Positions 1,835 to 11,716 are shown, numbered from the stretch's first letter. The stretch: 11,716 nt of DNA from a virus (IMGVR_UViG_2675903352_000003:1-11716), one strand, 5' to 3'. Numbers and translations: made by a program. The notes: generated by a model not told the origin, from the sequence alone.

Positions 1835-1933
1835 CACATTTTGCCAGTTCCTGGATGGGGACTGGCGTCAGGGCTGGATAGCTCACTACTCAATTCATTT
1901 ACAATTACGCAAAATTTTAAGGAATATTTAATT

Positions 1934-3073
1934 ATGGCTGGAAATACCCTGACCGGGTTGATCCCGACTATTTACACCGCCCTGGATGTTGTATCCCGTG
2001 AGCAGGTAGGTTTTATTCCTGCGGTAGCAAAAAACGCAAAAGCTGACGCTGCAGCAAAAGATCAAACGGTAACCGCGCCAGTTGCGCCTGATGCGAAAAC
2101 TGAAGATATCGTACCGGGCCCGTCAGCTCCGAATACTGGAGATCAAAATATTGGCACTGTTGATGTAAAAATTACTAAATCTAAAATGGCGCCAGTTAAA
2201 TGGAATGGTGAAGAACAACTGGCGCTTGGTCCTTCCGGGACTTACAACACCATTCTGGCTGATCAGTTCAAGCAAGCTTTTCGAGCACTTGCAAACGAGG
2301 TTGAGGCTGATCTTGGCGCACTGTATTTCGGTGCTTCTCGTGCTGTTGGGACCGCGGGGACAACGCCGTTTGGTGTTAAAGATGATCTTTCTGATGCGGC
2401 TCTGGCTCGTCAGATTCTGGAGGATAACGGGGCACCGACAACCGATTTACAGATGGTACTTGGCTCCACCGCTATTGCTAATTTGCGCGGAAAACAGTCC
2501 GTATTGTTTAAAGTGAATGAATCTGGCACTGAGCAGCTACTGCGCGAGGGTGTGTTGGGGCGCCTGGAGGGATTCAGTATTCACAGTTCGGCAGGTGTAA
2601 AACGAGTACCAAAAGCCACTGCAACTGGTTATCTTGTGAATGGTGAGAAGAAAGAAGGTGATGTTCTTATTTCCATTGATACTGGTTCGGGGAATATTTC
2701 GGCAGGGCAGATTGTTACTTTCGATGGCGATCCTAATCAGTATGTTGTGGCTGCTGCAACCAGTAATCTGATTACCCTTGCTGCACCAGGTCTACGTCAG
2801 GATCTGGCTGATGATACTGCAATCACGGTTGTCGGCTCATTTACTGCAAATATGGCGTTCGATCGCAACGCATTTCTGTTGGCATCCCGTACCCCGGCAA
2901 TGCCGGAGGGCGGCGATAGCGCTGATGATGTAATGAATGTTACGGACCCAATCTCGGGAATTACATTTCAGATTGCACTGTATCGTCAGTATCGTCAGGT
3001 ACGTTATGAAGTTGGGCTGGCATGGGGCGTTTCGTCAGTGAAACCTGCGCATAGCTGCCTGATTATTGGATAA
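1934..3073 (+). CDS. major capsid protein, putative
   Basis: ORF track gives 1841..3073 from a TTG. The in-frame ATG at 1934 (MAGNTLTG...) has AAGGA about 10 nt upstream and is the likelier start. The 379-aa product is Ala/Gly/Thr-rich, follows the scaffold gene, and is followed by a strong terminator hairpin. Assignment is by position and size, not by confirmed homology. Confidence 0.6.
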   Translation: MAGNTLTGLIPTIYTALDVVSREQVGFIPAVAKNAKADAAAKDQTVTAPVAPDAKTEDIVPGPSAPNTGDQNIGTVDVKITKSKMAPVKWNGEEQLALGPSGTYNTILADQFKQAFRALANEVEADLGALYFGASRAVGTAGTTPFGVKDDLSDAALARQILEDNGAPTTDLQMVLGSTAIANLRGKQSVLFKVNESGTEQLLREGVLGRLEGFSIHSSAGVKRVPKATATGYLVNGEKKEGDVLISIDTGSGNISAGQIVTFDGDPNQYVVAAATSNLITLAAPGLRQDLADDTAITVVGSFTANMAFDRNAFLLASRTPAMPEGGDSADDVMNVTDPISGITFQIALYRQYRQVRYEVGLAWGVSSVKPAHSCLIIG

Positions 3074-3077
3074 AATC

Positions 3078-3102
3078 AAAAAGGGGCTTCGGTCCCTTTT
3101 TT
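3078..3102 (+). terminator. intrinsic terminator with cUUCGg tetraloop
   Basis: Stem 3078-3087 (aaaaaggggc) pairs with 3092-3101 (gtcccttttt): 10 bp with one G-U. Loop ttcg at 3088-3091, with a T-run through 3102. Begins 5 nt after the capsid stop codon (3071-3073). Confidence 0.7.
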
Positions 3103-3114
3103 AATGGAGGGTAT

Positions 3115-3339
3115 ATGGCTGGATTGACTAAAGATCAAAGAGCACAGCGTGATGCCGCGCAAAAAAATGCAGTGTCGGAGCGGAAGGCGGCGCAAACCAG
3201 GGAACCACAAAAAACACCGATTAAGTTGGTAGTTATGATGACCGAGAATCAGATATTCCCCGGTGCCCCAACAATCGCTAATGTTCATCCTGATGAAGTT
3301 GACAATTGGAAGGCGCTGGGCTGGAAAACACAGGAGTAG
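3115..3339 (+). CDS. hypothetical small protein (74 aa), function unknown
   Basis: ATG at 3115 with GGAGG at 3106-3110. Its stop at 3337-3339 is 4 nt before the next gene start. N-terminal half is highly charged and K/Q/A-rich (TKDQRAQRDAAQKNAVSERKAAQTREPQK). I recognise no motif. Confidence 0.5.
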   Translation: MAGLTKDQRAQRDAAQKNAVSERKAAQTREPQKTPIKLVVMMTENQIFPGAPTIANVHPDEVDNWKALGWKTQE

Positions 3340-3342
3340 CGC

Positions 3343-3738
3343 ATGATCACTTACGTTACCTGTGATGATGTTGATAATACGCTTGGGAAAAACTGGGCGA
3401 ATGAGGATGTTAAAAATAAAGCGGTTTTAATGGCCAATGCCTGGTTGAATAACTTTAGTCTGAAGGTTGATCCATCCAGTATTCCTGACGAGGTAAAGCT
3501 CGCTGGAGCATATGCTGCCAGAGTCGCTTCTGTAGGTAAGTTATTTCAGCAGAAAAATGATTCTGGTGTTGTTATAAATAAAACTGTGTCGGCTGATGGG
3601 GTTAGTGTATCGAAATCATTTGCTGAATTATCAGCAAACAGCACTGCATTGCTTGAGCCCGATTTACAGCTTGCGCTGGCGCTGCTGAAACCGTACGGAC
3701 TGAGTCACTCACAAGTCAGGGTTGTGAGGGGGGGATGA
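3343..3738 (+). CDS. head-tail connector / adaptor protein (gp6-like), putative
   Basis: 131-aa ORF with AGGAG at 3332-3336 six nt upstream of the ATG. Size and position (first of the neck genes after the capsid) fit a head-tail adaptor. Its stop overlaps the next start (ATGA at 3735-3738). Confidence 0.45.
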   Translation: MITYVTCDDVDNTLGKNWANEDVKNKAVLMANAWLNNFSLKVDPSSIPDEVKLAGAYAARVASVGKLFQQKNDSGVVINKTVSADGVSVSKSFAELSANSTALLEPDLQLALALLKPYGLSHSQVRVVRGG

Positions 3739-4121: not shown

Positions 4122-4502
4122 ATGGCAAAGGCATGGGATCTGGAACCGTCAATATTTGTTGGGATGATTGAGGAAGATGTGGGACTGAAAATTCGCTACA
4201 TCGCTATTCAGATTCTTACAGCTATTGATATTGCCGCTCCGGTTGATACCGGGCGTTTCAGAAATAATAATCTGGTATCGTTACAGCACCCAGATTTTAG
4301 TATATCTGATAATGTGGATCCGAATGGCACGATTGCACTTCAACGTGGAATCGGGGTTATTTCAAAAGCGGCGAATTACGGAATCATCTACATCCAGAAT
4401 AACCTGCCTTATGCCGAATCTATTGAGGATGGACATTCTCAACAAGCGCCAACAGGTGTGTATGCTAATGCTTTTAATGGTGTTTCGCAGATTTATAAAT
4501 GA
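4122..4502 (+). CDS. HK97 gp10-like neck/tail-component protein, putative
   Basis: 126-aa ORF with AGGTGA SD about 7 nt upstream. Contains a DTGRFRNN motif resembling the DTG-x-LR-x-S signature I recall for the HK97 gp10 family. Its stop overlaps the next start (ATGA at 4499-4502). Confidence 0.5.
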   Translation: MAKAWDLEPSIFVGMIEEDVGLKIRYIAIQILTAIDIAAPVDTGRFRNNNLVSLQHPDFSISDNVDPNGTIALQRGIGVISKAANYGIIYIQNNLPYAESIEDGHSQQAPTGVYANAFNGVSQIYK

Positions 4503-4891
4503 CTTTTACTGAAATCAGAAATGCTGTTATTTCCAGAATGACGGCACAGACGGTTATTGATGGAAAAGATGTATTATATCCAAACGGGCCAACATTCGAT
4601 CCGTCAGGTAAGTTAATCTGGGCGCGGTTAAGTGATATCCCCGGTCTGGCTGGGACTAATGAAATTGGTGCGGGTCCGGTTGTTTATCGCACGGGGATAA
4701 TTATTATTCAGTTATTTGTTCCCGCAGGCTCTGGCTCAAAACTTATTACTGAGACGGCGGATAAATTGCGAGAATTGTTTGAATTTCAGGATGATGATCG
4801 TCTCAGCTACCAGGCTGTTTCCTCAATAGCCGTTGGTGAAAAGAATGGCTGGTTCCAGCTTAATCTTCAAATTCCATATCGAGCGCTCTAG
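4499..4891 (+). CDS. tail terminator / tail completion protein (gpU-like), putative
   Basis: 130-aa ORF immediately upstream of the major tail gene, with ATGA start-stop overlap to the upstream gene. Size and position fit a tail terminator. Confidence 0.45.
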   Translation: MTFTEIRNAVISRMTAQTVIDGKDVLYPNGPTFDPSGKLIWARLSDIPGLAGTNEIGAGPVVYRTGIIIIQLFVPAGSGSKLITETADKLRELFEFQDDDRLSYQAVSSIAVGEKNGWFQLNLQIPYRAL

Positions 4892-4917: not shown

Positions 4918-5880
4918 GTGAGTTCAGGTGCAAAGGTTATCTCGGCATTTATCCGGGAGACAATTGCAGGCACCACGCCAGCTAGTGGTGACTGGAGTTT
5001 ATTAAAGCGCACAAGCTGGGGAGTAAAACCAACCCAGAATAAAGGCGAAAATAATGAGATCGGTGGTTCTCGTATGGCTCAGGGGGCGACGCCTGGCACT
5101 GTGGATGTCGGCGGTGATGTTGGTACCAAATTTCGCTGGGGCCAACATGATGATTTCCTTGCATCCTGTTTCGGCGCGGAATGGTCAGGAGATTCTCTGA
5201 CTATGGGGAATGAGCGAATAACATTTTCTCTGGCAACATATGCGTCAGATGTAGGAATTGCCTCTGTCGTCAGGGGGGCACAGGTTGGATCGTGGAAAAT
5301 GCAGATTCCTAACGACGGTGATATTACTGCGACAGTCACTTTTGCCGGGCTGGACTGGGAATCAAAGGCCGATGATACAAATTTTATCAAAGGCGAGCCT
5401 GTAGATAGTGCAGGAAAGTTACGTTATTCGTTTAAGGAAGTTTCAGCAGTAAGTCTGAATGGTGTTGCCGGAGGTAACGGTTTTTGTATCGACAGCTTTG
5501 ATATCCAGTTCGATAACAAACTTCAGACCCAGCGTTGTGTCGGGACTGGTTCTCCTTATGCAGGAGCAAATATTCCGACTACTTTTACACCGTCCGGTAC
5601 GGTGACGCTTTCATGGTCTAAAGCCGCGTGGGAAATCTGGAGTAAAACATTAACTGGAGAAACAGTTCCGTTCAGCTTCACGCTTTCGAATGGAGAGGGG
5701 GCATATACTTTCAGTTTCCCGAAGGTTCAGATATCAGGTGAATGGCCTGACGGCGGTAATACCGATATTATCCAGGTCCAGTTGAGTATTACCGCTGCTG
5801 ATGAAGCGCCAACTATCACCAGAAAAAAAGCTTCCCCGGCTGCAGTGATTGCAAAAGCCAGTGCTGAGTCGATTAGTTGA
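4918..5880 (+). CDS. major tail protein, putative
   Basis: 320-aa ORF starting at GTG 4918, with a perfect AGGAGG at 4907-4912 five nt upstream. Gly/Thr/Ser-rich, and located directly upstream of the G / G-T chaperone pair as major tail genes are in siphoviruses. Confidence 0.6.
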   Translation: MSSGAKVISAFIRETIAGTTPASGDWSLLKRTSWGVKPTQNKGENNEIGGSRMAQGATPGTVDVGGDVGTKFRWGQHDDFLASCFGAEWSGDSLTMGNERITFSLATYASDVGIASVVRGAQVGSWKMQIPNDGDITATVTFAGLDWESKADDTNFIKGEPVDSAGKLRYSFKEVSAVSLNGVAGGNGFCIDSFDIQFDNKLQTQRCVGTGSPYAGANIPTTFTPSGTVTLSWSKAAWEIWSKTLTGETVPFSFTLSNGEGAYTFSFPKVQISGEWPDGGNTDIIQVQLSITAADEAPTITRKKASPAAVIAKASAESIS

Positions 5881-5940: not shown

Positions 5941-6492
5941 ATGTTTATTCTTGAACAGAAAACTATCATCGGTGGAGAACGCTGGTTTACGCCAATGAAG
6001 GACTTAGAACCTATTGCTGGGTTACAACTGTTGGTGGCAAGCAGTGATAATGATCAGTATCGCTCCCGTAATGCATTAATCCGTCGCCACATTGAGAAAA
6101 TGGATGCCAGTTTGCATGTCGGAACGAAGGCGTTTGATATTGCAAAGGTCGTCGAGGTGGACTCTGTTGATGATTTACTCATTGATAACGCCGCTCGTTA
6201 TCTGCTGAAAGACTGGAAAGGGGTTGGAGAGCTGGTAGATGGTGTTGAGGTCGCGCTGGAATATACACCAGAAAGAGGTGCTGCGCTGCTCAAGCAGAAT
6301 CCAGAGTTGTACTGGCAAATCCTTGCAGAAGCCGCCAGAATCGCCCAGGGAAAAGAGCAGCAAAAGCAGGATACGATAAAAAAGCCATTGCCGCCCAGCG
6401 GTGGATATCGGAGTTCGGGGGAGAAAAGGGTGAAAAGGCAAGGTGGAAACGAGAAAAGCTCAGATTGCCGCCGCTCCCGGAGCCAGAAATAG
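5941..6492 (+). CDS. tail assembly chaperone (lambda gpG analogue)
   Basis: 183-aa ORF with GAGG SD about 6 nt upstream of ATG 5941. It lies immediately upstream of the tape measure gene and contains an A_AAA_AAG slippery heptamer near its 3' end. Its last 108 nt overlap an open -1 frame that continues to 6698. Confidence 0.7.
   Translation: MFILEQKTIIGGERWFTPMKDLEPIAGLQLLVASSDNDQYRSRNALIRRHIEKMDASLHVGTKAFDIAKVVEVDSVDDLLIDNAARYLLKDWKGVGELVDGVEVALEYTPERGAALLKQNPELYWQILAEAARIAQGKEQQKQDTIKKPLPPSGGYRSSGEKRVKRQGGNEKSSDCRRSRSQK
6378..6384 (+). promoter_or_regulatory. programmed -1 ribosomal frameshift slippery heptamer A_AAA_AAG (G to G-T)
   Basis: In the G frame the codons are ata(6376) aaa(6379) aag(6382), so 6378-6384 reads A AAA AAG in X_XXY_YYZ register. 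The -1 frame is open from 6249 through 6695. Confidence 0.6.
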
Positions 6493-6698
6493 ACCCGGTT
6501 ATTAGGGAATTGTTGTACGCCTATTCGGTGATATCCCGTGCCCGGCGTTATGCTGGAATGGCTGGGGTGCCTTTGCCTTTATCTCTGTCAGAGATAAATG
6601 AATATTTAGCCACTCATCCGGTATTGATTGAGCGCGATGAATTTGAAGCAGTGATCTTTGCACTGGATGACCAGTATTTTCAGGAGCAGTGTGTGTAG
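6384..6698 (+). CDS. T segment of the G-T tail assembly chaperone fusion, expressed by -1 frameshift from G
   Basis: The -1 frame relative to G is open from the slip site to TAG at 6696-6698. It has no credible independent start (ORF track uses TTG 6465 with no SD). The arrangement matches the conserved G / G-T pair upstream of tape measure genes. Predicted fusion is about 252 aa (148 from G plus 104). Confidence 0.55.
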   Translation, partial: AIAAQRWISEFGGEKGEKARWKREKLRLPPLPEPEIDPVIRELLYAYSVISRARRYAGMAGVPLPLSLSEINEYLATHPVLIERDEFEAVIFALDDQYFQEQCV

Positions 6699-6818
6699 TT
6701 GTTAATTACGTACACTCTGTTACAGAGATGTGATAGTGTCTTTAATTAAATCGATGATGCTCCTGGAGAAAAGCATTGCGTGGCCTCGTAATCGCTATAT
6801 CTACTATTATGTCGCCTG

Positions 6819-6846
6819 AAACCCACTTCGGTGGGTTTTTTTGTTG
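6819..6846 (+). terminator. intrinsic terminator with cUUCGg tetraloop
   Basis: Perfect 8-bp stem, 6819-6826 (aaacccac) with 6831-6838 (gtgggttt). Loop ttcg at 6827-6830, followed by ttttg ttg. Lies in the 164-bp spacer between T and H, 17 nt upstream of the H start codon. Confidence 0.7.
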
Positions 6847-6862
6847 TCAGGAGTTTTAATAA

Positions 6863-9800
6863 ATGGCAGAGCAGACCTCACGTCTTGCAATAATTATTGA
6901 TAGCTCTGGAGCGAAAAATAATGCTGATAATCTGACCTCATCATTAGTCAAAATGACGCAGGCCGGGGAAACTGCTGCAAATAGCGCAGGGAAAGTGACT
7001 AAGGCAACAGAAGACGAGAAGAACGCGCTCGCAAAATTAAAAGCAGCTATTGATCCAGTTGGTGCCGCAATTGATACTGTCGGTCGACGCTATTCTGAAT
7101 TAAAGAAATATTTCGATAAAGGGCTTATTGATAAAGAAGAATATGAATTTCTTGCCCGTAAACTTAATGAAACCACAGAGGAATTGAGCGGGGTTGCGCA
7201 AGCGCAGAGAGAGGCCGAGAAGGCCGGAAAACTTGCTGCCGCCCAGCAGGAAGCGCAGGCTCAGGCCTTTCAAAGAATGCTGGACAAGATCGACCCTCTG
7301 GCTGCGGCGCTAAGAAATCTTGATCAACAGCAGGATGAACTTAATGCTGCACTTTTTTCCGGGAAAATAAATGGCTCTCAGTTTGATAATTACAGCCGAA
7401 AAATACAGGAAACGCGGCGAGAGCTAACAGGAGAGGCTCAGGCAGAACGAGAAGCAGCAAAAGCGCATGATGAACAAGTTGCTGCTTTGCAACGTCTGAT
7501 TGCTCAACTCGATCCTGTTGGAACAGCTTTTAACCGCCTGACAGAGCAGCAAAAGCAACTCAGCGAAGCAAAAGCCAAGGGGATGCTTTCTCCTGAAATG
7601 TATGAGGAGCTTTCAGGAAAACTCCATGCTATGCGGAGTGAGCTTGAGGCTACTCAATCGCAACTCAGCAAAACCGGAATGTCAGCAAAACAAACGGCTT
7701 TTGCTATGCGCATGTTGCCTGCACAAATGACGGATATTGTTGTTGGGTTGTCCACTGGTCAGTCGCCATTTATGGTGTTAATGCAGCAGGGCGGCCAGCT
7801 AAAAGATATGTTCGGTGGGATTGGCCCGGCGATCAAAGGTGTTGGTTCTTATGTGCTGGGATTAATTAATCCTTTTACCCTGGCCGCAGCAGCCGTTGGC
7901 GCCTTGGGGCTAGCTTACTATAAAGGTTCTCAGGAGCAGGACGAATTTAATAAATCTCTTATTCTTACCGGAAATCAGTTGGGGACAACCAGCGGGCAAT
8001 TAGCCGATATAGCTCAACGTGCCGGGGATGCTGCTGATTCGACAACTGGCGCTGCGGCGGCAGTATTAAACCAGCTTGTGCGTTCGGGAAAGGTCGCGAG
8101 CAGTTCGCTGGAGCAGGTGACGACAGCGATAGTAAAAACGAGCGAATTAACTGGAATATCGACCGATCAACTGGTTAATAATTTCAATGAAATTGCAAAG
8201 GATCCTGTCAGTGCCATATCAAAACTTAATGATCAGTACCATTTTCTGACACTGGCGACTTATAACCAGATTAAGGCGCTACAGGATGAAGGGAACCAGC
8301 AGGAGGCGGCCCGCATTGCGACAGAAGCATACTCATCCTCAATGATCCAGCGCACCAACCAGATTAAAGAAAATCTTGGTTATCTTGAGACTGCATGGAA
8401 AGCTGTCGCAGACTCCGCAAAATGGGCATGGGATTCCATGCTGGATATTGGCCGTGAGGCCTCCCTTGATCAAAAAATCTCAGATGTTCTCCGTCAAATT
8501 GATGAAATAGAAAAAAATACCCGACCCGGAGTTTTCGGGTTAGGTGGCATTGGAGATGGCGGAGCTCAAAATAAAAGGCTGGCACGATTAAAGCAGCAAT
8601 TGGGCGTACTTCAAGCAGAAAAAATTGCTCAGGACGTACTAAATTCATCAATAAACGATTACAACAAGCGACAACAGGAAGGAATTGAACTCAGACAGAG
8701 AGCAGATGCCTTTTCAAAACAATATCAGACCCGGGAGCAGCAGAGAGCTAGTGAACTTGCAAAACTGGAAAAACTAAAGAGTCAGTATTCAAAGGAAGAA
8801 TATAATAATCTTATCGCTCAAATAAATGAGCGTTATAAAGATCCAAAGCAACCAAAGGCGAAAGGTTATTCGGATGATGCAGCCCAACGAATGATTGATC
8901 ATCTGAATCAACAGAATGCGTTACTAAGTTCACAAACTGAATTAACCGTTAAATTAAGTTCCTCTGAACAGGAACTGGTTAAGTGGCGTCAGCAGATTGC
9001 CGACCTGGAGTCACGACCGTCATCAAAATTAACTAAGGATCAGAAATCGCTTCTCTTACACCGGGAAGAAATAACCGCGTTGATGGAGAAAAATGTTGCG
9101 ATTGAAAAAAATAACAGGCTAATCAAGGAGTCAGCCGAAATAGCCGCATGGCGTAGTTCATTGCAGGCTTCTATTGATAATCATCAGCAGGGGTATGACA
9201 TTCAGATCGCTGGTTATGGACTTGGCGATAAAAATCAGCAACGTCAGCAGGAATTACTGCGGATTGAACGTGAATATAACAACCGGCGTCTGCAACTTGA
9301 ACGTGACTATGCGGATAAATCTCGTGGAATGTCTGAACGTGTTTTTCAGGAAAAAATACAGGTCCTGAATGATGCTGTGGAGCGGGAAAAAGAAATTATC
9401 AGGCAGAAAAATGAGCAGCTCGATATTCAGGCTGGAGACTGGGTAAGTGGGGCGTCCCAAGGATTCAATAACTGGTTGGATAACACTAAGGATATCAGCG
9501 GGCAGATAAAATCAACCACGACTCAGATGTTTGATGGGATGACAGATGCGCTTGGTGATTTTGTCACGACAGGTAAGGCAAATTTTCGTTCTTTCGCTAC
9601 CTCCGTGATTTCAGATCTTAGCAGAATAGCATTAAAGGCTTCAATTACCGGGATTTTCGACAGCATTAGCAACAGTTCTTCTGGGGGAATTTTAGGAACT
9701 ATCGGAAGTGCTGTTAGTAAATTTATTCCTAATGCAAAGGGCGGTATTTATGAGTCTCCATCATTGAGTACATATTCAAACGGTATTTATGATTCCCCGC

Positions 9801-10096
9801 AATTTTTTGCTTTTGCAAAAGGTGCTGGTGTTTTTGGTGAGGCTGGACCGGAAGCTATTATGCCATTAACACGAACTTCCGATGGTTCTCTTGGTGTCAG
9901 GGCGATTAATAATAAAGGCGGTAATGGAGGCGGAGACATTAATTACTCTCCTGTATATCAAATTACTATCAAAAATGACGGACAGAATGGAGAGATTGGC
10001 CCTCAGGCAATTAGAACACTTATGGGAATGGTTGATCAGCGAGTGCAGGGCACTTTGTTAAATATGCGACGTGATGGAGGAATGTTAAGTGGCTGA
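6863..10096 (+). CDS. H: tail tape measure protein (lambda gpH homologue)
   Basis: 1077-aa ORF with AGGAG at 6849-6853 nine nt upstream of the ATG. It contains [39 protein letters not shown], which I recognise as matching the conserved segment of lambda H ([11 protein letters not shown]...GGQSPW..LQQGGQVKDSFGG), and a C-terminus [13 protein letters not shown]...[10 protein letters not shown] matching lambda H NDGTNGQIGPAAL...MRDGGLFSG. Long central charged coiled-coil-like region. Confidence 0.95.
7046..7672 (+). repeat. three tandem divergent copies of a ~70-80-aa module in the N-terminal region of the tape measure protein (protein-level repeat)
   Basis: Translated copies align: [23 protein letters not shown]...[30 protein letters not shown]; [24 protein letters not shown]...[29 protein letters not shown]; [24 protein letters not shown]...[28 protein letters not shown]. 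The DNA copies are diverged, so the duplication is old. Confidence 0.6.
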
Positions 10097-10421
10097 AGAA
10101 TTCCACTGGTTACCAGAGGATGGAATGAAAACAGAAAATAAACCATCGATAAAAACTGTAAGATTTGGCGATGGTTATGAGCAACGAAGTCCAAATGGAC
10201 TTAATCATTCTCTACGTGTTTTCACCTGTGATTTCAAGGTTGAGGCGAATGAACGTGATTCATTCGAAAATTTTTTAGCACGGCATGGAGGCTATAAATC
10301 TTTTTTTTGGCGTCCACCTGGTGTTAACAGAAAAATCAGAGTGGTGTGTCGAACGTGGTCAGCTACAGAACATATCACCTATACCGATTTTTCGTGTCAG
10401 TTTGATGAAGTGGTGATCTGA
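10089..10421 (+). CDS. M: minor tail protein M (lambda gpM homologue)
   Basis: 110-aa ORF starting at GTG 10089, with GGAGG at 10076-10080 eight nt upstream; it overlaps the end of H by 8 nt. The N-terminus [28 protein letters not shown] aligns with lambda M as I recall it (KTFRWKVKPGMDVASVPSVRKVRFGDGY), and size matches lambda M (109 aa). Divergent from lambda overall. Confidence 0.85.
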
Positions 10422-11119
10422 TGCAGGATATCCGGCAGGAAACACTGAATGAGTGTACAAAAGCGGAGCAATCCGCGCTGATCGTGCTCTGGGAAGTCGA
10501 TCTGACAGAGGTCGGCGGAGAGCGTTATTTTTTCTGTAATGAGCAGAACGAAAAAGACGAACCAGTCACCTGGCAGGGGCGGCAGTATCAGGCGTACCCC
10601 ATTCAGGGGAGCGGATTTGAGATGAACGGTAAAGGAGCCAGCGCCAGGCCAACTCTGAAAGTCTCTAATCTGCACGGCATGGTCACCGGGATGGTGGAAG
10701 ATTTGCAGAGTCTGGTCGGCGGAACGGTGGTCAGGCGTAAGGTTTACGCCCGTTTTCTGGATGCGGTGAACTTCGTCAACGGAAACATCGAGGCAGACCC
10801 GGAGCAGGAGGCGATCAGCCGCTGGCGCATCGAGCAGTGCAGCGAACTGAGCGCGGTCAGTGCCTCCTTTGTGCTCTCCACACCGACGGAAACGGACGGC
10901 ACTGTTTTTCCGGGACGTATCATGCTGGCCAACACCTGCACCTGGACCTATCGCGGCGATGAGTGCGGTTATAGCGGTCCGGCGGTCGCGGATGAATATG
11001 ACCAGCCAACGTCCGATATCACGAAGGATAAATGCAGCAAATGCCTGAGTGGCTGTAAGTTCCGCAATAACGTCGCCAACTTTGGCGGCTTCCTTTCCAT
11101 TAACAAACTTTCGCAGTAA
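10421..11119 (+). CDS. L: minor tail protein L (lambda gpL homologue), C-terminal Cys cluster
   Basis: 232-aa ORF. Its ATG overlaps the M stop by 1 nt (tgATG). [12 protein letters not shown]...VGGERYFFCNEQNEK...GRIMLANTCTWTYRGDECGYSGP...KDKCSKCLSGCKFRNN matches lambda gpL almost residue-for-residue from memory, with the same length. The C-terminal cysteines correspond to the reported iron-sulfur cluster ligands of lambda gpL. Confidence 0.95.
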   Translation: MQDIRQETLNECTKAEQSALIVLWEVDLTEVGGERYFFCNEQNEKDEPVTWQGRQYQAYPIQGSGFEMNGKGASARPTLKVSNLHGMVTGMVEDLQSLVGGTVVRRKVYARFLDAVNFVNGNIEADPEQEAISRWRIEQCSELSAVSASFVLSTPTETDGTVFPGRIMLANTCTWTYRGDECGYSGPAVADEYDQPTSDITKDKCSKCLSGCKFRNNVANFGGFLSINKLSQ

Positions 11120-11123
11120 ACCC

Positions 11124-11716
11124 ATGACAGAAACAGAATCAGCGATTCTGGCGCACGCCCGGCGATGTGCGCCAGCGGAGTCGTGCGGCTTCGTGGTGAG
11201 AACGCCGGAGGGAGAAAGATATTTTCCCTGCGTGAATATCTCCGGTGAGCCGGAGGATTATTTCAGGCTGTCGACGGAGGACTGGCTGCAGGCAGAAATG
11301 CAGGGGGAGATTGTGGCGCTGGTCCACAGCCACCCCGGTGGTCTGCCCTGGCTGAGTGAGGCTGACCGGCGGCTGCAGGTGCAGAGTGATTTGCCGTGGT
11401 GGCTGGTCTGCCGGGGTGAGATTCACAAGTTCCGCTGTGTGCCACATCTTACCGGGCGGCGCTTTGAACACGGGGTGACGGACTGTTACACGCTGTTCCG
11501 GGACGCTTACCATCTGGCGGGAATTGAGATGCCGGATTTTCACCGCGGGGATGACTGGTGGCGTAACGGTCAGAATCTCTATCTGGATAATCTGGAGGCC
11601 ACAGGGCTGTATCAGGTGCCGTTGTCAGCGGCGCAGCCGGGCGATGTGCTGCTGTGCTGTTTTGGTTCATCGGTGCCGAATCATGCCGCCATTTACTGTG
11701 GTGACGGCGAGCTGCT
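11124..11716 (+). CDS. K: tail assembly protein K (lambda gpK homologue), 3'-truncated by window end
   Basis: ATG at 11124, 4 nt after the L stop, open to the window end (not in the ORF track because no stop is reached). Translation MTETESAILAHARRCAPAESCGFVV...EIVALVHSHPGGLPWLSEADRR...GVTDCYTLFRDAYHLAG carries a JAMM/MPN-type motif (HSHPGG...SEAD) followed by an NlpC/P60-like Cys (DCYTLF), as in lambda K. Confidence 0.9.
   Translation, partial: MTETESAILAHARRCAPAESCGFVVRTPEGERYFPCVNISGEPEDYFRLSTEDWLQAEMQGEIVALVHSHPGGLPWLSEADRRLQVQSDLPWWLVCRGEIHKFRCVPHLTGRRFEHGVTDCYTLFRDAYHLAGIEMPDFHRGDDWWRNGQNLYLDNLEATGLYQVPLSAAQPGDVLLCCFGSSVPNHAAIYCGDGEL

Follow-up and report, generated by a model that had tools for sequence, protein, structure and literature searches.

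In phage lambda, the distal ring of the tail is a gpM hexamer, which rests with one face on the last gpV tube ring and binds the trimeric gpL/gpJ ring through its E-loops, both contacts being made by electrostatic stacking; the role of the cysteines of the L Fe-S cluster has been described as well (PMC10721106). Adjacent tail genes of lambdoid phages tend to be transferred together in blocks (PMC9836094), and the mosaics formed among these phages contain segments that are >90% identical and have sharp edges, with a trace of flanking homology in about 30% of them and none in about 70% (PMC3945230). Here we analysed a stretch of DNA of 11,716 nt, referred to below as the window, in which a tail-tip block of the lambda type is joined to a head and tail shaft of a different kind. 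The seam lies at the boundary between the genes for the distal tail protein (M) and the tail-tip hub (L), within the final 22 nt of M, and the same seam is present in about 13% of complete Escherichia coli genomes.

The window corresponds to one whole draft contig, BBVQ01000081.1 (assembly GCA_001514805.1), and ORF calls identified it as a phage late operon with all genes on the same (plus) strand; its position 1 lies inside the minor head gene and position 11716 inside K. Pfam searches assigned a Mu-F-like minor head protein (90–965), a DUF6651 protein (998–1834), a P22-type coat protein (1841–3073), a tail terminator (4499–4891), a tail tube protein (4918–5880) and a YdaY-family ORF (5941–6492; Phage_YdaY, PF27119), followed by a tape measure gene of 1,077 aa analogous to lambda H (6863–10096; TMP_2, TMP_4 and Tape_meas_lam_C). 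The next gene, a GTG-initiated lambda M analogue encoding a distal tail protein of 110 aa (10089–10421; PF05939), overlaps the H stop with its start, and the M stop shares 1 nt with the ATG at 10421 of the tail-tip hub gene L (10421–11119, 232 aa; PF05100). The tail-tip assembly gene K (11124–11716), encoding a JAB/MPN (Prok-JAB, PF14464) and an NlpC/P60 (PF00877) domain, is incomplete in the window because the contig ends there. The H-M-L-K order is that of lambda, and all families score above their Pfam gathering cut-offs (111 bits against 39 for PF05939 in M, 331 against 25 for PF05100 in L, and 53 against 25 and 31 against 23 for PF14464 and PF00877 in K). The four [4Fe-4S] cysteines, Cys173, 182, 205 and 212, are all present in the window L. 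H and M form part of an AT-rich shaft module, of which M is the last gene.

Upstream of the tape measure gene, an ORF at 6465–6698 shares 28 nt with the YdaY-family ORF and is read in the −1 frame with respect to it, the layout expected of a tail chaperone frameshift of the lambda G/GT type; inspection by eye identified no canonical slippery heptamer at this overlap within 5941–6698. Within the late operon, a textbook-like hairpin of the intrinsic-terminator kind (6812–6848; AAACCCAC-TTCG-GTGGGTTT, then a T run) sits in the 165-nt gap that precedes the tape measure gene, whose start codon is at 6863. On the minus strand, an antisense ORF of 242 codons (10397–11125) spans L almost exactly, and the same antisense strand is open for 253 codons in lambda; most likely it is a shadow ORF, L being a gene of high GC3. 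An IS end had been suspected in the first 79 nt when two genomes were found to match from position 1 with an IS2 under the match. This origin was rejected, as the IS2 of strain 200177 lies inside the tape measure gene, and the 79 nt simply belong to a stretch of the minor head gene that varies more.

Rac prophages are marked by trkG, the ParB-like ynaK and ydaY. Within the window, ydaY (PF27119) is the only one of these markers; in MEI003 and APEC O1, the same operon stands 3′ of lysis genes, trkG and the ParB-like ynaK, with ydaY inside it, and trkG and ynaK there lie upstream of the part that the contig covers. We therefore regard the window as probably the late operon of a Rac-family lambdoid prophage, an operon of which the Rac prophage of K-12 presumably retains only remnants (ydaY, tmpR). 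The Rac-family prophages of MEI003, APEC O1 and strain 042 and the phages vB_EcoS-473R12, vB_EcoS-666R9 and SPF_0923 are colinear with the window along its full length at ~92% identity (98.6% for MEI003) and share its M/L junction and its set of genes, YdaY among them. The window M is 92–99% identical to the M of these syntenic relatives. Relative to phage ON470609, identity falls to 74–82% at 3001–3600, near the small ORF at 3115–3339 and where the following gene begins, whereas the flanks are at ~90%; this is a local variable spot in the head–tail connector region. In MEI003, the region 3′ of the side tail fibre genes (30311–34570) carries an NleG family gene, a HECT-type E3 ligase gene and nleC, and given these type III secretion effector genes the lineage can be an effector-carrying prophage.

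Comparison of the 11.7-kb window with lambda (NC_001416, positions 1–20000) by blastn at word size 7 gave a sole match, between window positions 10399–11716 and lambda 13407–14724 (91.4% over 1,319 aligned columns), and no lambda nucleotide homology was detected 5′ of 10399. This match delimits the lambda-type tail-tip block, which is ended in the window by the end of the contig. At the protein level, identity to lambda is 28% for H (residues 270–1077), 43% for M, 92% for L and 90–95% for the visible part of K, and tblastn found no lambda homologue of the head and shaft genes other than H and M upstream of L in the window. In a four-way alignment, identity to lambda rises from ~44% in codon-aligned M to ~91% within ~20 nt at 10399, a position that precedes the M stop and the start of L by 22 nt, and agreement from AGTTTGA onward is ~90%. 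The start of the BLAST match and the jump in the alignment thus place the breakpoint zone over the last seven codons and stop of M and the start of L (10399–10421), and the seam is the M/L gene boundary. The edge is abrupt and lies by a gene boundary, and the window and lambda, otherwise dissimilar genomes, share >90% nucleotide identity across the block, which are the marks by which De Paepe et al. (2014) recognized mosaics.

The initial annotation of this region, made from the sequence alone, had described M as diverged from its lambda counterpart yet alignable, H as divergent, and L and the visible K as matching lambda almost exactly, and had placed near M/L a breakpoint joining a lambda-type tip to a different head and shaft. 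The values above bear out the description of H and M (pS for M is 0.84), and the alignment to NC_001416 that had been suggested locates the anticipated jump in identity at 10399, within the stretch (10089–10700) to which the annotation had assigned it. For L and K, the strong homology stands but the closeness was overstated, nucleotide identity being only ~91% with dS of 0.36 and 0.28, respectively. The feature is present, far beyond chance, and the jump in identity, the contrast in dS and a step in GC3 show the contrast at M/L to be a real recombination seam, in support of that interpretation.

The K frame itself differs between the two sequences. It is continuous in the window through the JAB and NlpC/P60 domains; in lambda, the first 44 residues are matched in one frame (14133–14264, 95%) and the rest of the K region in another (14219–14722, 90%). 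The annotated lambda K (14276–14875) thus lacks the N-terminal JAB part, and either the reference sequence or the strain behind it apparently has a frame break here.

The right end of the block can be placed only through the relatives, in which it spans lambda 13407–18474 (MEI003) and 13407–18437 (APEC O1) at 91–92% identity. In these prophages the block comprises L, K, I and ~87% of J, ~5 kb; similarity is lost in the receptor-binding end of J and is patchy in lom and stf, and the block of the window would be expected to end likewise.

The join may have arisen by illegitimate recombination at a random position, the product having survived at a gene boundary (the Juhala/Hendrix model), or by a crossover, homologous or homeologous, in the short stretch conserved at the end of M. 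Consistent with the former, the 300 nt 5′ of the seam hold no lambda nucleotide homology (44% identity when codon-aligned, no hit at word size 7), so that no flanking homologous-recombination trace to lambda was found, and De Paepe et al. found no homology trace in ~70% of mosaics (PMC3945230). The last 23 nt of M, however, equal lambda at 19 positions, synonymous sites in the codons for F, V and V among them; in other lambdoid phages and prophages the match begins at 10399, 10410 or 10418, according to the M type that each carries; and the boundary was reused by a second exchange, described below. These points fit a short conserved sequence that guides Red/RecT-type recombination. Such guiding of exchange by short conserved sequence in Red/RecT-type recombination has reportedly been described, and the HK97/HK022 junctions are said to lie at module boundaries (Juhala et al., 2000). 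The 3′ end of M likely carries the L ribosome-binding site, and the 19/23 identity could reflect conserved coding and ribosome-binding function instead of a crossover point. Towards PhiR49_2 and MS8345, the flank is 48–73% identical, a weak trace for that pair. We regard the illegitimate route as a serious contender, with a probability somewhat below even.

The seam is not private to this genome. A 501-nt query centred on it matched at least 80% of its length in 717 of 5,426 complete E. coli genomes, and 681 of these 5,426 contain at least 80% of the window. A query with M only was found in 721 of the same genomes (717 at a coverage of at least 80%), and the sole partial M match among the matches listed was a short unannotated fragment. 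Given 721 genomes with M and 717 with the junction, this M type is essentially always joined to a lambda-type L, and essentially never to another L in this set. The reverse does not hold: the start of the lambda-type L occurs at 8,416 places in 4,161 genomes, mostly behind other M types, with a median of 2 places and up to 7 per E. coli genome. About ten deposited phage records match the whole window, seam included; vB_EcoS-473R12, vB_EcoS-666R9 and SPF_0923, the last labelled Salmonella, show ~92% identity over 94–99% of the window, and ON470609 and ON470614 show ~92% whole-window identity. The MEI003 prophage is 98.6% identical over the whole window and 99–100% identical over 9600–10800, across the seam. 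The initial annotation had held that uniform identity to one known phage from H through K would speak against a breakpoint. Uniform relatives of this kind do exist (MEI003 at 99%, ON470609 at ~92%), but they show that the mosaic was inherited, not that it is absent. The join is old, lineage-wide and inherited, an event that did not take place in this genome.

Within L, a further discontinuity separates the window and MEI003 from the other Rac-family relatives, which carry another allele in the first 250–380 nt of the gene. Per 60 nt, the window and MEI003 are only 63–80% identical to APEC O1, ON470609 and lambda in patches at ~10440–10500 and ~10620–10680 (68–75% to lambda alone), and these patches are 88–98% identical to the MS8345 prophage and phage PhiR49_2, whose allele marks two variable patches in L at 10446–10483 and 10633–10660 on the plus strand. 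The H and M of MS8345 and PhiR49_2 are of yet another type, their M sharing 51% protein identity with that of the window. At informative sites, the window agrees with APEC O1 at 121 and with MS8345 at 9 in M (10089–10398), with APEC O1 at 16 and MS8345 at 44 over 10399–10800, and with each at 18 over 10801–11716. Because the phylogenetic signal flips at M/L, the first 250–380 nt of L appear to have been replaced after the original join. These site patterns are evidence for a second exchange, in which this part of L would have come from another lambdoid prophage, with its left end at the M/L boundary. With the junction query, MEI003 alone matched at 99% or more and only three further genomes fell in the 95–99% band; the other full-length junction matches, among the matches listed, were 89–90% identical. 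The combination in the window is rare. MEI003 itself departs from the window after ~10800, where identity is ~95–97%, and in a tape measure segment of ~490 nt (8310–8799) that has no match in MEI003 and is 98–100% identical to ON470609, an internal tape measure swap.

The rarity of this allele is what could make the M/L join appear recent and specific to this genome: the allele that the 5′ part of L (10421 to ~10800) carries is seldom seen in this setting, and the site patterns point to a later exchange of the MS8345/PhiR49_2 type. The primary join, however, is common to 717 genomes and about ten phage records, and a dS of ~0.3 relative to lambda makes the primary event old; only the secondary replacement of the patch is comparatively recent, and it too is found in MEI003. 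A recent origin of the join in this genome is therefore improbable, and we retain an old, inherited join with a later change in L. M/L may also be a recurrent recombination hotspot, with the conserved ~20–25 nt of the M 3′ end and the L ribosome-binding site and start acting as a micro-homology linker through which any lambdoid prophage could acquire the shared host-range module L-K-I-J, and with the two hypervariable L patches (10446–10483 and 10633–10660) circulating as small cassettes among prophages that are otherwise unrelated; we put this forward tentatively, as a possibility that we think rather unlikely.

The contrast between the two sides of the seam is also seen at synonymous sites. 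Relative to lambda, pS is saturated in H (0.81) and M (0.84), with 0.81–0.87 as the range for the two genes, whereas dS is 0.36 in L (dN 0.044) and 0.28 in K, so that synonymous divergence is low inside the block and saturated outside it. Purifying selection cannot keep synonymous sites 70–75% identical beside a gene in which they are randomized, and the ancestry that L and K share with lambda must therefore be much more recent than that of H and M. Base composition changes at the same place. H has a GC content of 0.449 and a GC3 of 0.383, and M a GC content of 0.402; GC3 is 0.297 in M, 0.674 in L and 0.68 in K, with values of 0.35–0.50 in the genes upstream of M. The sliding GC profile that the initial annotation had called for runs at ~0.39–0.44 through the end of H and M and at 0.55–0.62 from ~10400, the climb, from ~0.41 to 0.55–0.60, falling across 10350–10650, and the counts of G+C per 60 nt that it had given (24 at 10141–10200, 31 at 10441–10500 and 41 at 10801–10860) are all exact. 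A maximum-likelihood scan for a single GC change-point, from the start of H to the end of the window, placed it at ~10463 with a log-likelihood gain of 34.

In lambda itself, GC3 is uniform at 0.655–0.685 over H, M, L and K. The 60-nt GC windows 3′ of the seam follow lambda closely at homologous positions, and those 5′ of it contain 7–13 G+C per 60 nt fewer than lambda. Amelioration was considered as a cause of the gradual rise of GC in early L and was rejected, since lambda L has the same local GC profile. Given the uniform GC3 of lambda, the native context of the block looks lambda-like, and from its composition we infer that the block came from a late operon of this kind and is the incomer on an AT-richer backbone.

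Descent without recombination would have to attribute the contrast to stronger purifying selection that slowed L and K during vertical divergence. Both genes are indeed strongly constrained (dN/dS of ~0.12 for L and ~0.05 for K), and L has a conserved Fe-S cluster. Selection alone is nevertheless excluded as the source of the contrast between H/M and L/K, because synonymous sites are saturated on one side (pS 0.81–0.87) and little diverged on the other (dS 0.28–0.36); moreover, the step in GC3 from 0.30 to 0.67 coincides with this change, the transition takes ~20 nt, and across 4,161 genomes the lambda-type L is attached to several M types. We consider vertical divergence very improbable. A mis-join in assembly, by which a lambda-type end from another prophage of the same genome would have been attached to this operon, was prompted by the window being a whole draft contig that stops inside K, a gene repeated in most E. 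coli (median 2, up to 7), and is scarcely credible and was rejected on the evidence of complete genomes, 717 of which have the same join, MEI003 at 99–100% over 9600–10800. The break of the contig inside K fits the multi-copy nature of the lambda-type tail-tip block.

The explanation that best accounts for these observations, to which we assign a probability of about 0.9 as a whole, is an inherited recombination between lambdoid phages at M/L with a later replacement in L. Under this explanation, a Rac-family late operon encoding the Mu-F-like minor head protein, DUF6651 protein, P22-type coat protein, connectors, tail terminator, tube, YdaY, tape measure and M would have supplied an AT-rich module, which would have been joined at the 3′ end of M (~10399–10421) to a GC-rich tail-tip module of recent common ancestry with lambda L-K-I-J. 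Two lambdoid phages would have recombined, crossing over no more than ~20 nt from the M/L boundary, in an ancestor of the now widespread lineage, and the resulting join would then have been inherited; later, in the sub-lineage of the window and MEI003, the first 250–380 nt of L would have been replaced from another lambdoid prophage. Directly observed are the seam and where it lies, how widely it is spread and the conflict between the phylogenetic signals of its two flanks. The direction of transfer, with the tip block as the incomer, is suggested by base composition.

The structural rationale, like the mechanism of recombination, is an interpretation. The products of the two genes flanking the M/L seam contact each other ring on ring; M would move with the tube and tape measure, to which it must fit, and L, K, I and J would move together as the tip assembly unit, in agreement with the block-wise transfer of lambdoid tail genes (PMC9836094) and with the sharp-edged mosaics (PMC3945230). 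By analogy with the lambda tail, this interface would be tolerant, such that an M of 43% identity could still dock a lambda-type tip. The chimeric tail may assemble, the divergent M ring docking the lambda-type L/J ring, and may yield infectious particles. Indirect support comes from phages of this architecture that have been deposited as phage records and from the retention of the junction in 717 genomes.

In the literature on this exact junction and on the vB_EcoS-...R phages, we found only general work on mosaicism. The junction already occurs in public data, in genomes by the hundred as well as in phage records, and is a case of ordinary lambdoid mosaicism; the phenomenon is already known, and no new mechanism or system is revealed by it. 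For modular phage evolution, it shows the host-choosing tip L-K-I-J being drawn from a pool that most E. coli lambdoid prophages have in common, while their heads and tail shafts belong to unrelated types. For annotation, it means that draft contigs break in the repeated tip block and that typing of prophages by their tail-tip genes will misgroup lineages.

Among described systems, lambda L-K-I-J (NC_001416, 13429–18903) is the counterpart of the tip block. The two are alike in gene order, in an L of 232 aa, in the 1-nt overlap of the M stop and L start, in the conserved Fe-S cysteines and in GC profile, with 91.4% nucleotide identity from 13407 and 92% amino acid identity in L; they are not near-identical, given dS of 0.28–0.36 and L patches of 68–75% identity per 60 nt. 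The heads are of another type, the window having a P22-type coat protein and a DUF6651 protein where lambda has E, D, C and Nu3. The closest parallels to the seam are the mosaics of De Paepe et al. (2014) and the HK97/HK022 junctions, which likewise show a segment of >90% identity, a sharp limit by a gene boundary and joint movement of tail genes. Unlike those mosaics that retain a trace of flanking homology, the window has none to lambda, and compared with the median mosaic length of 404–494 bp (PMC3945230), the ~5-kb segment seen in the relatives of the window is much longer.
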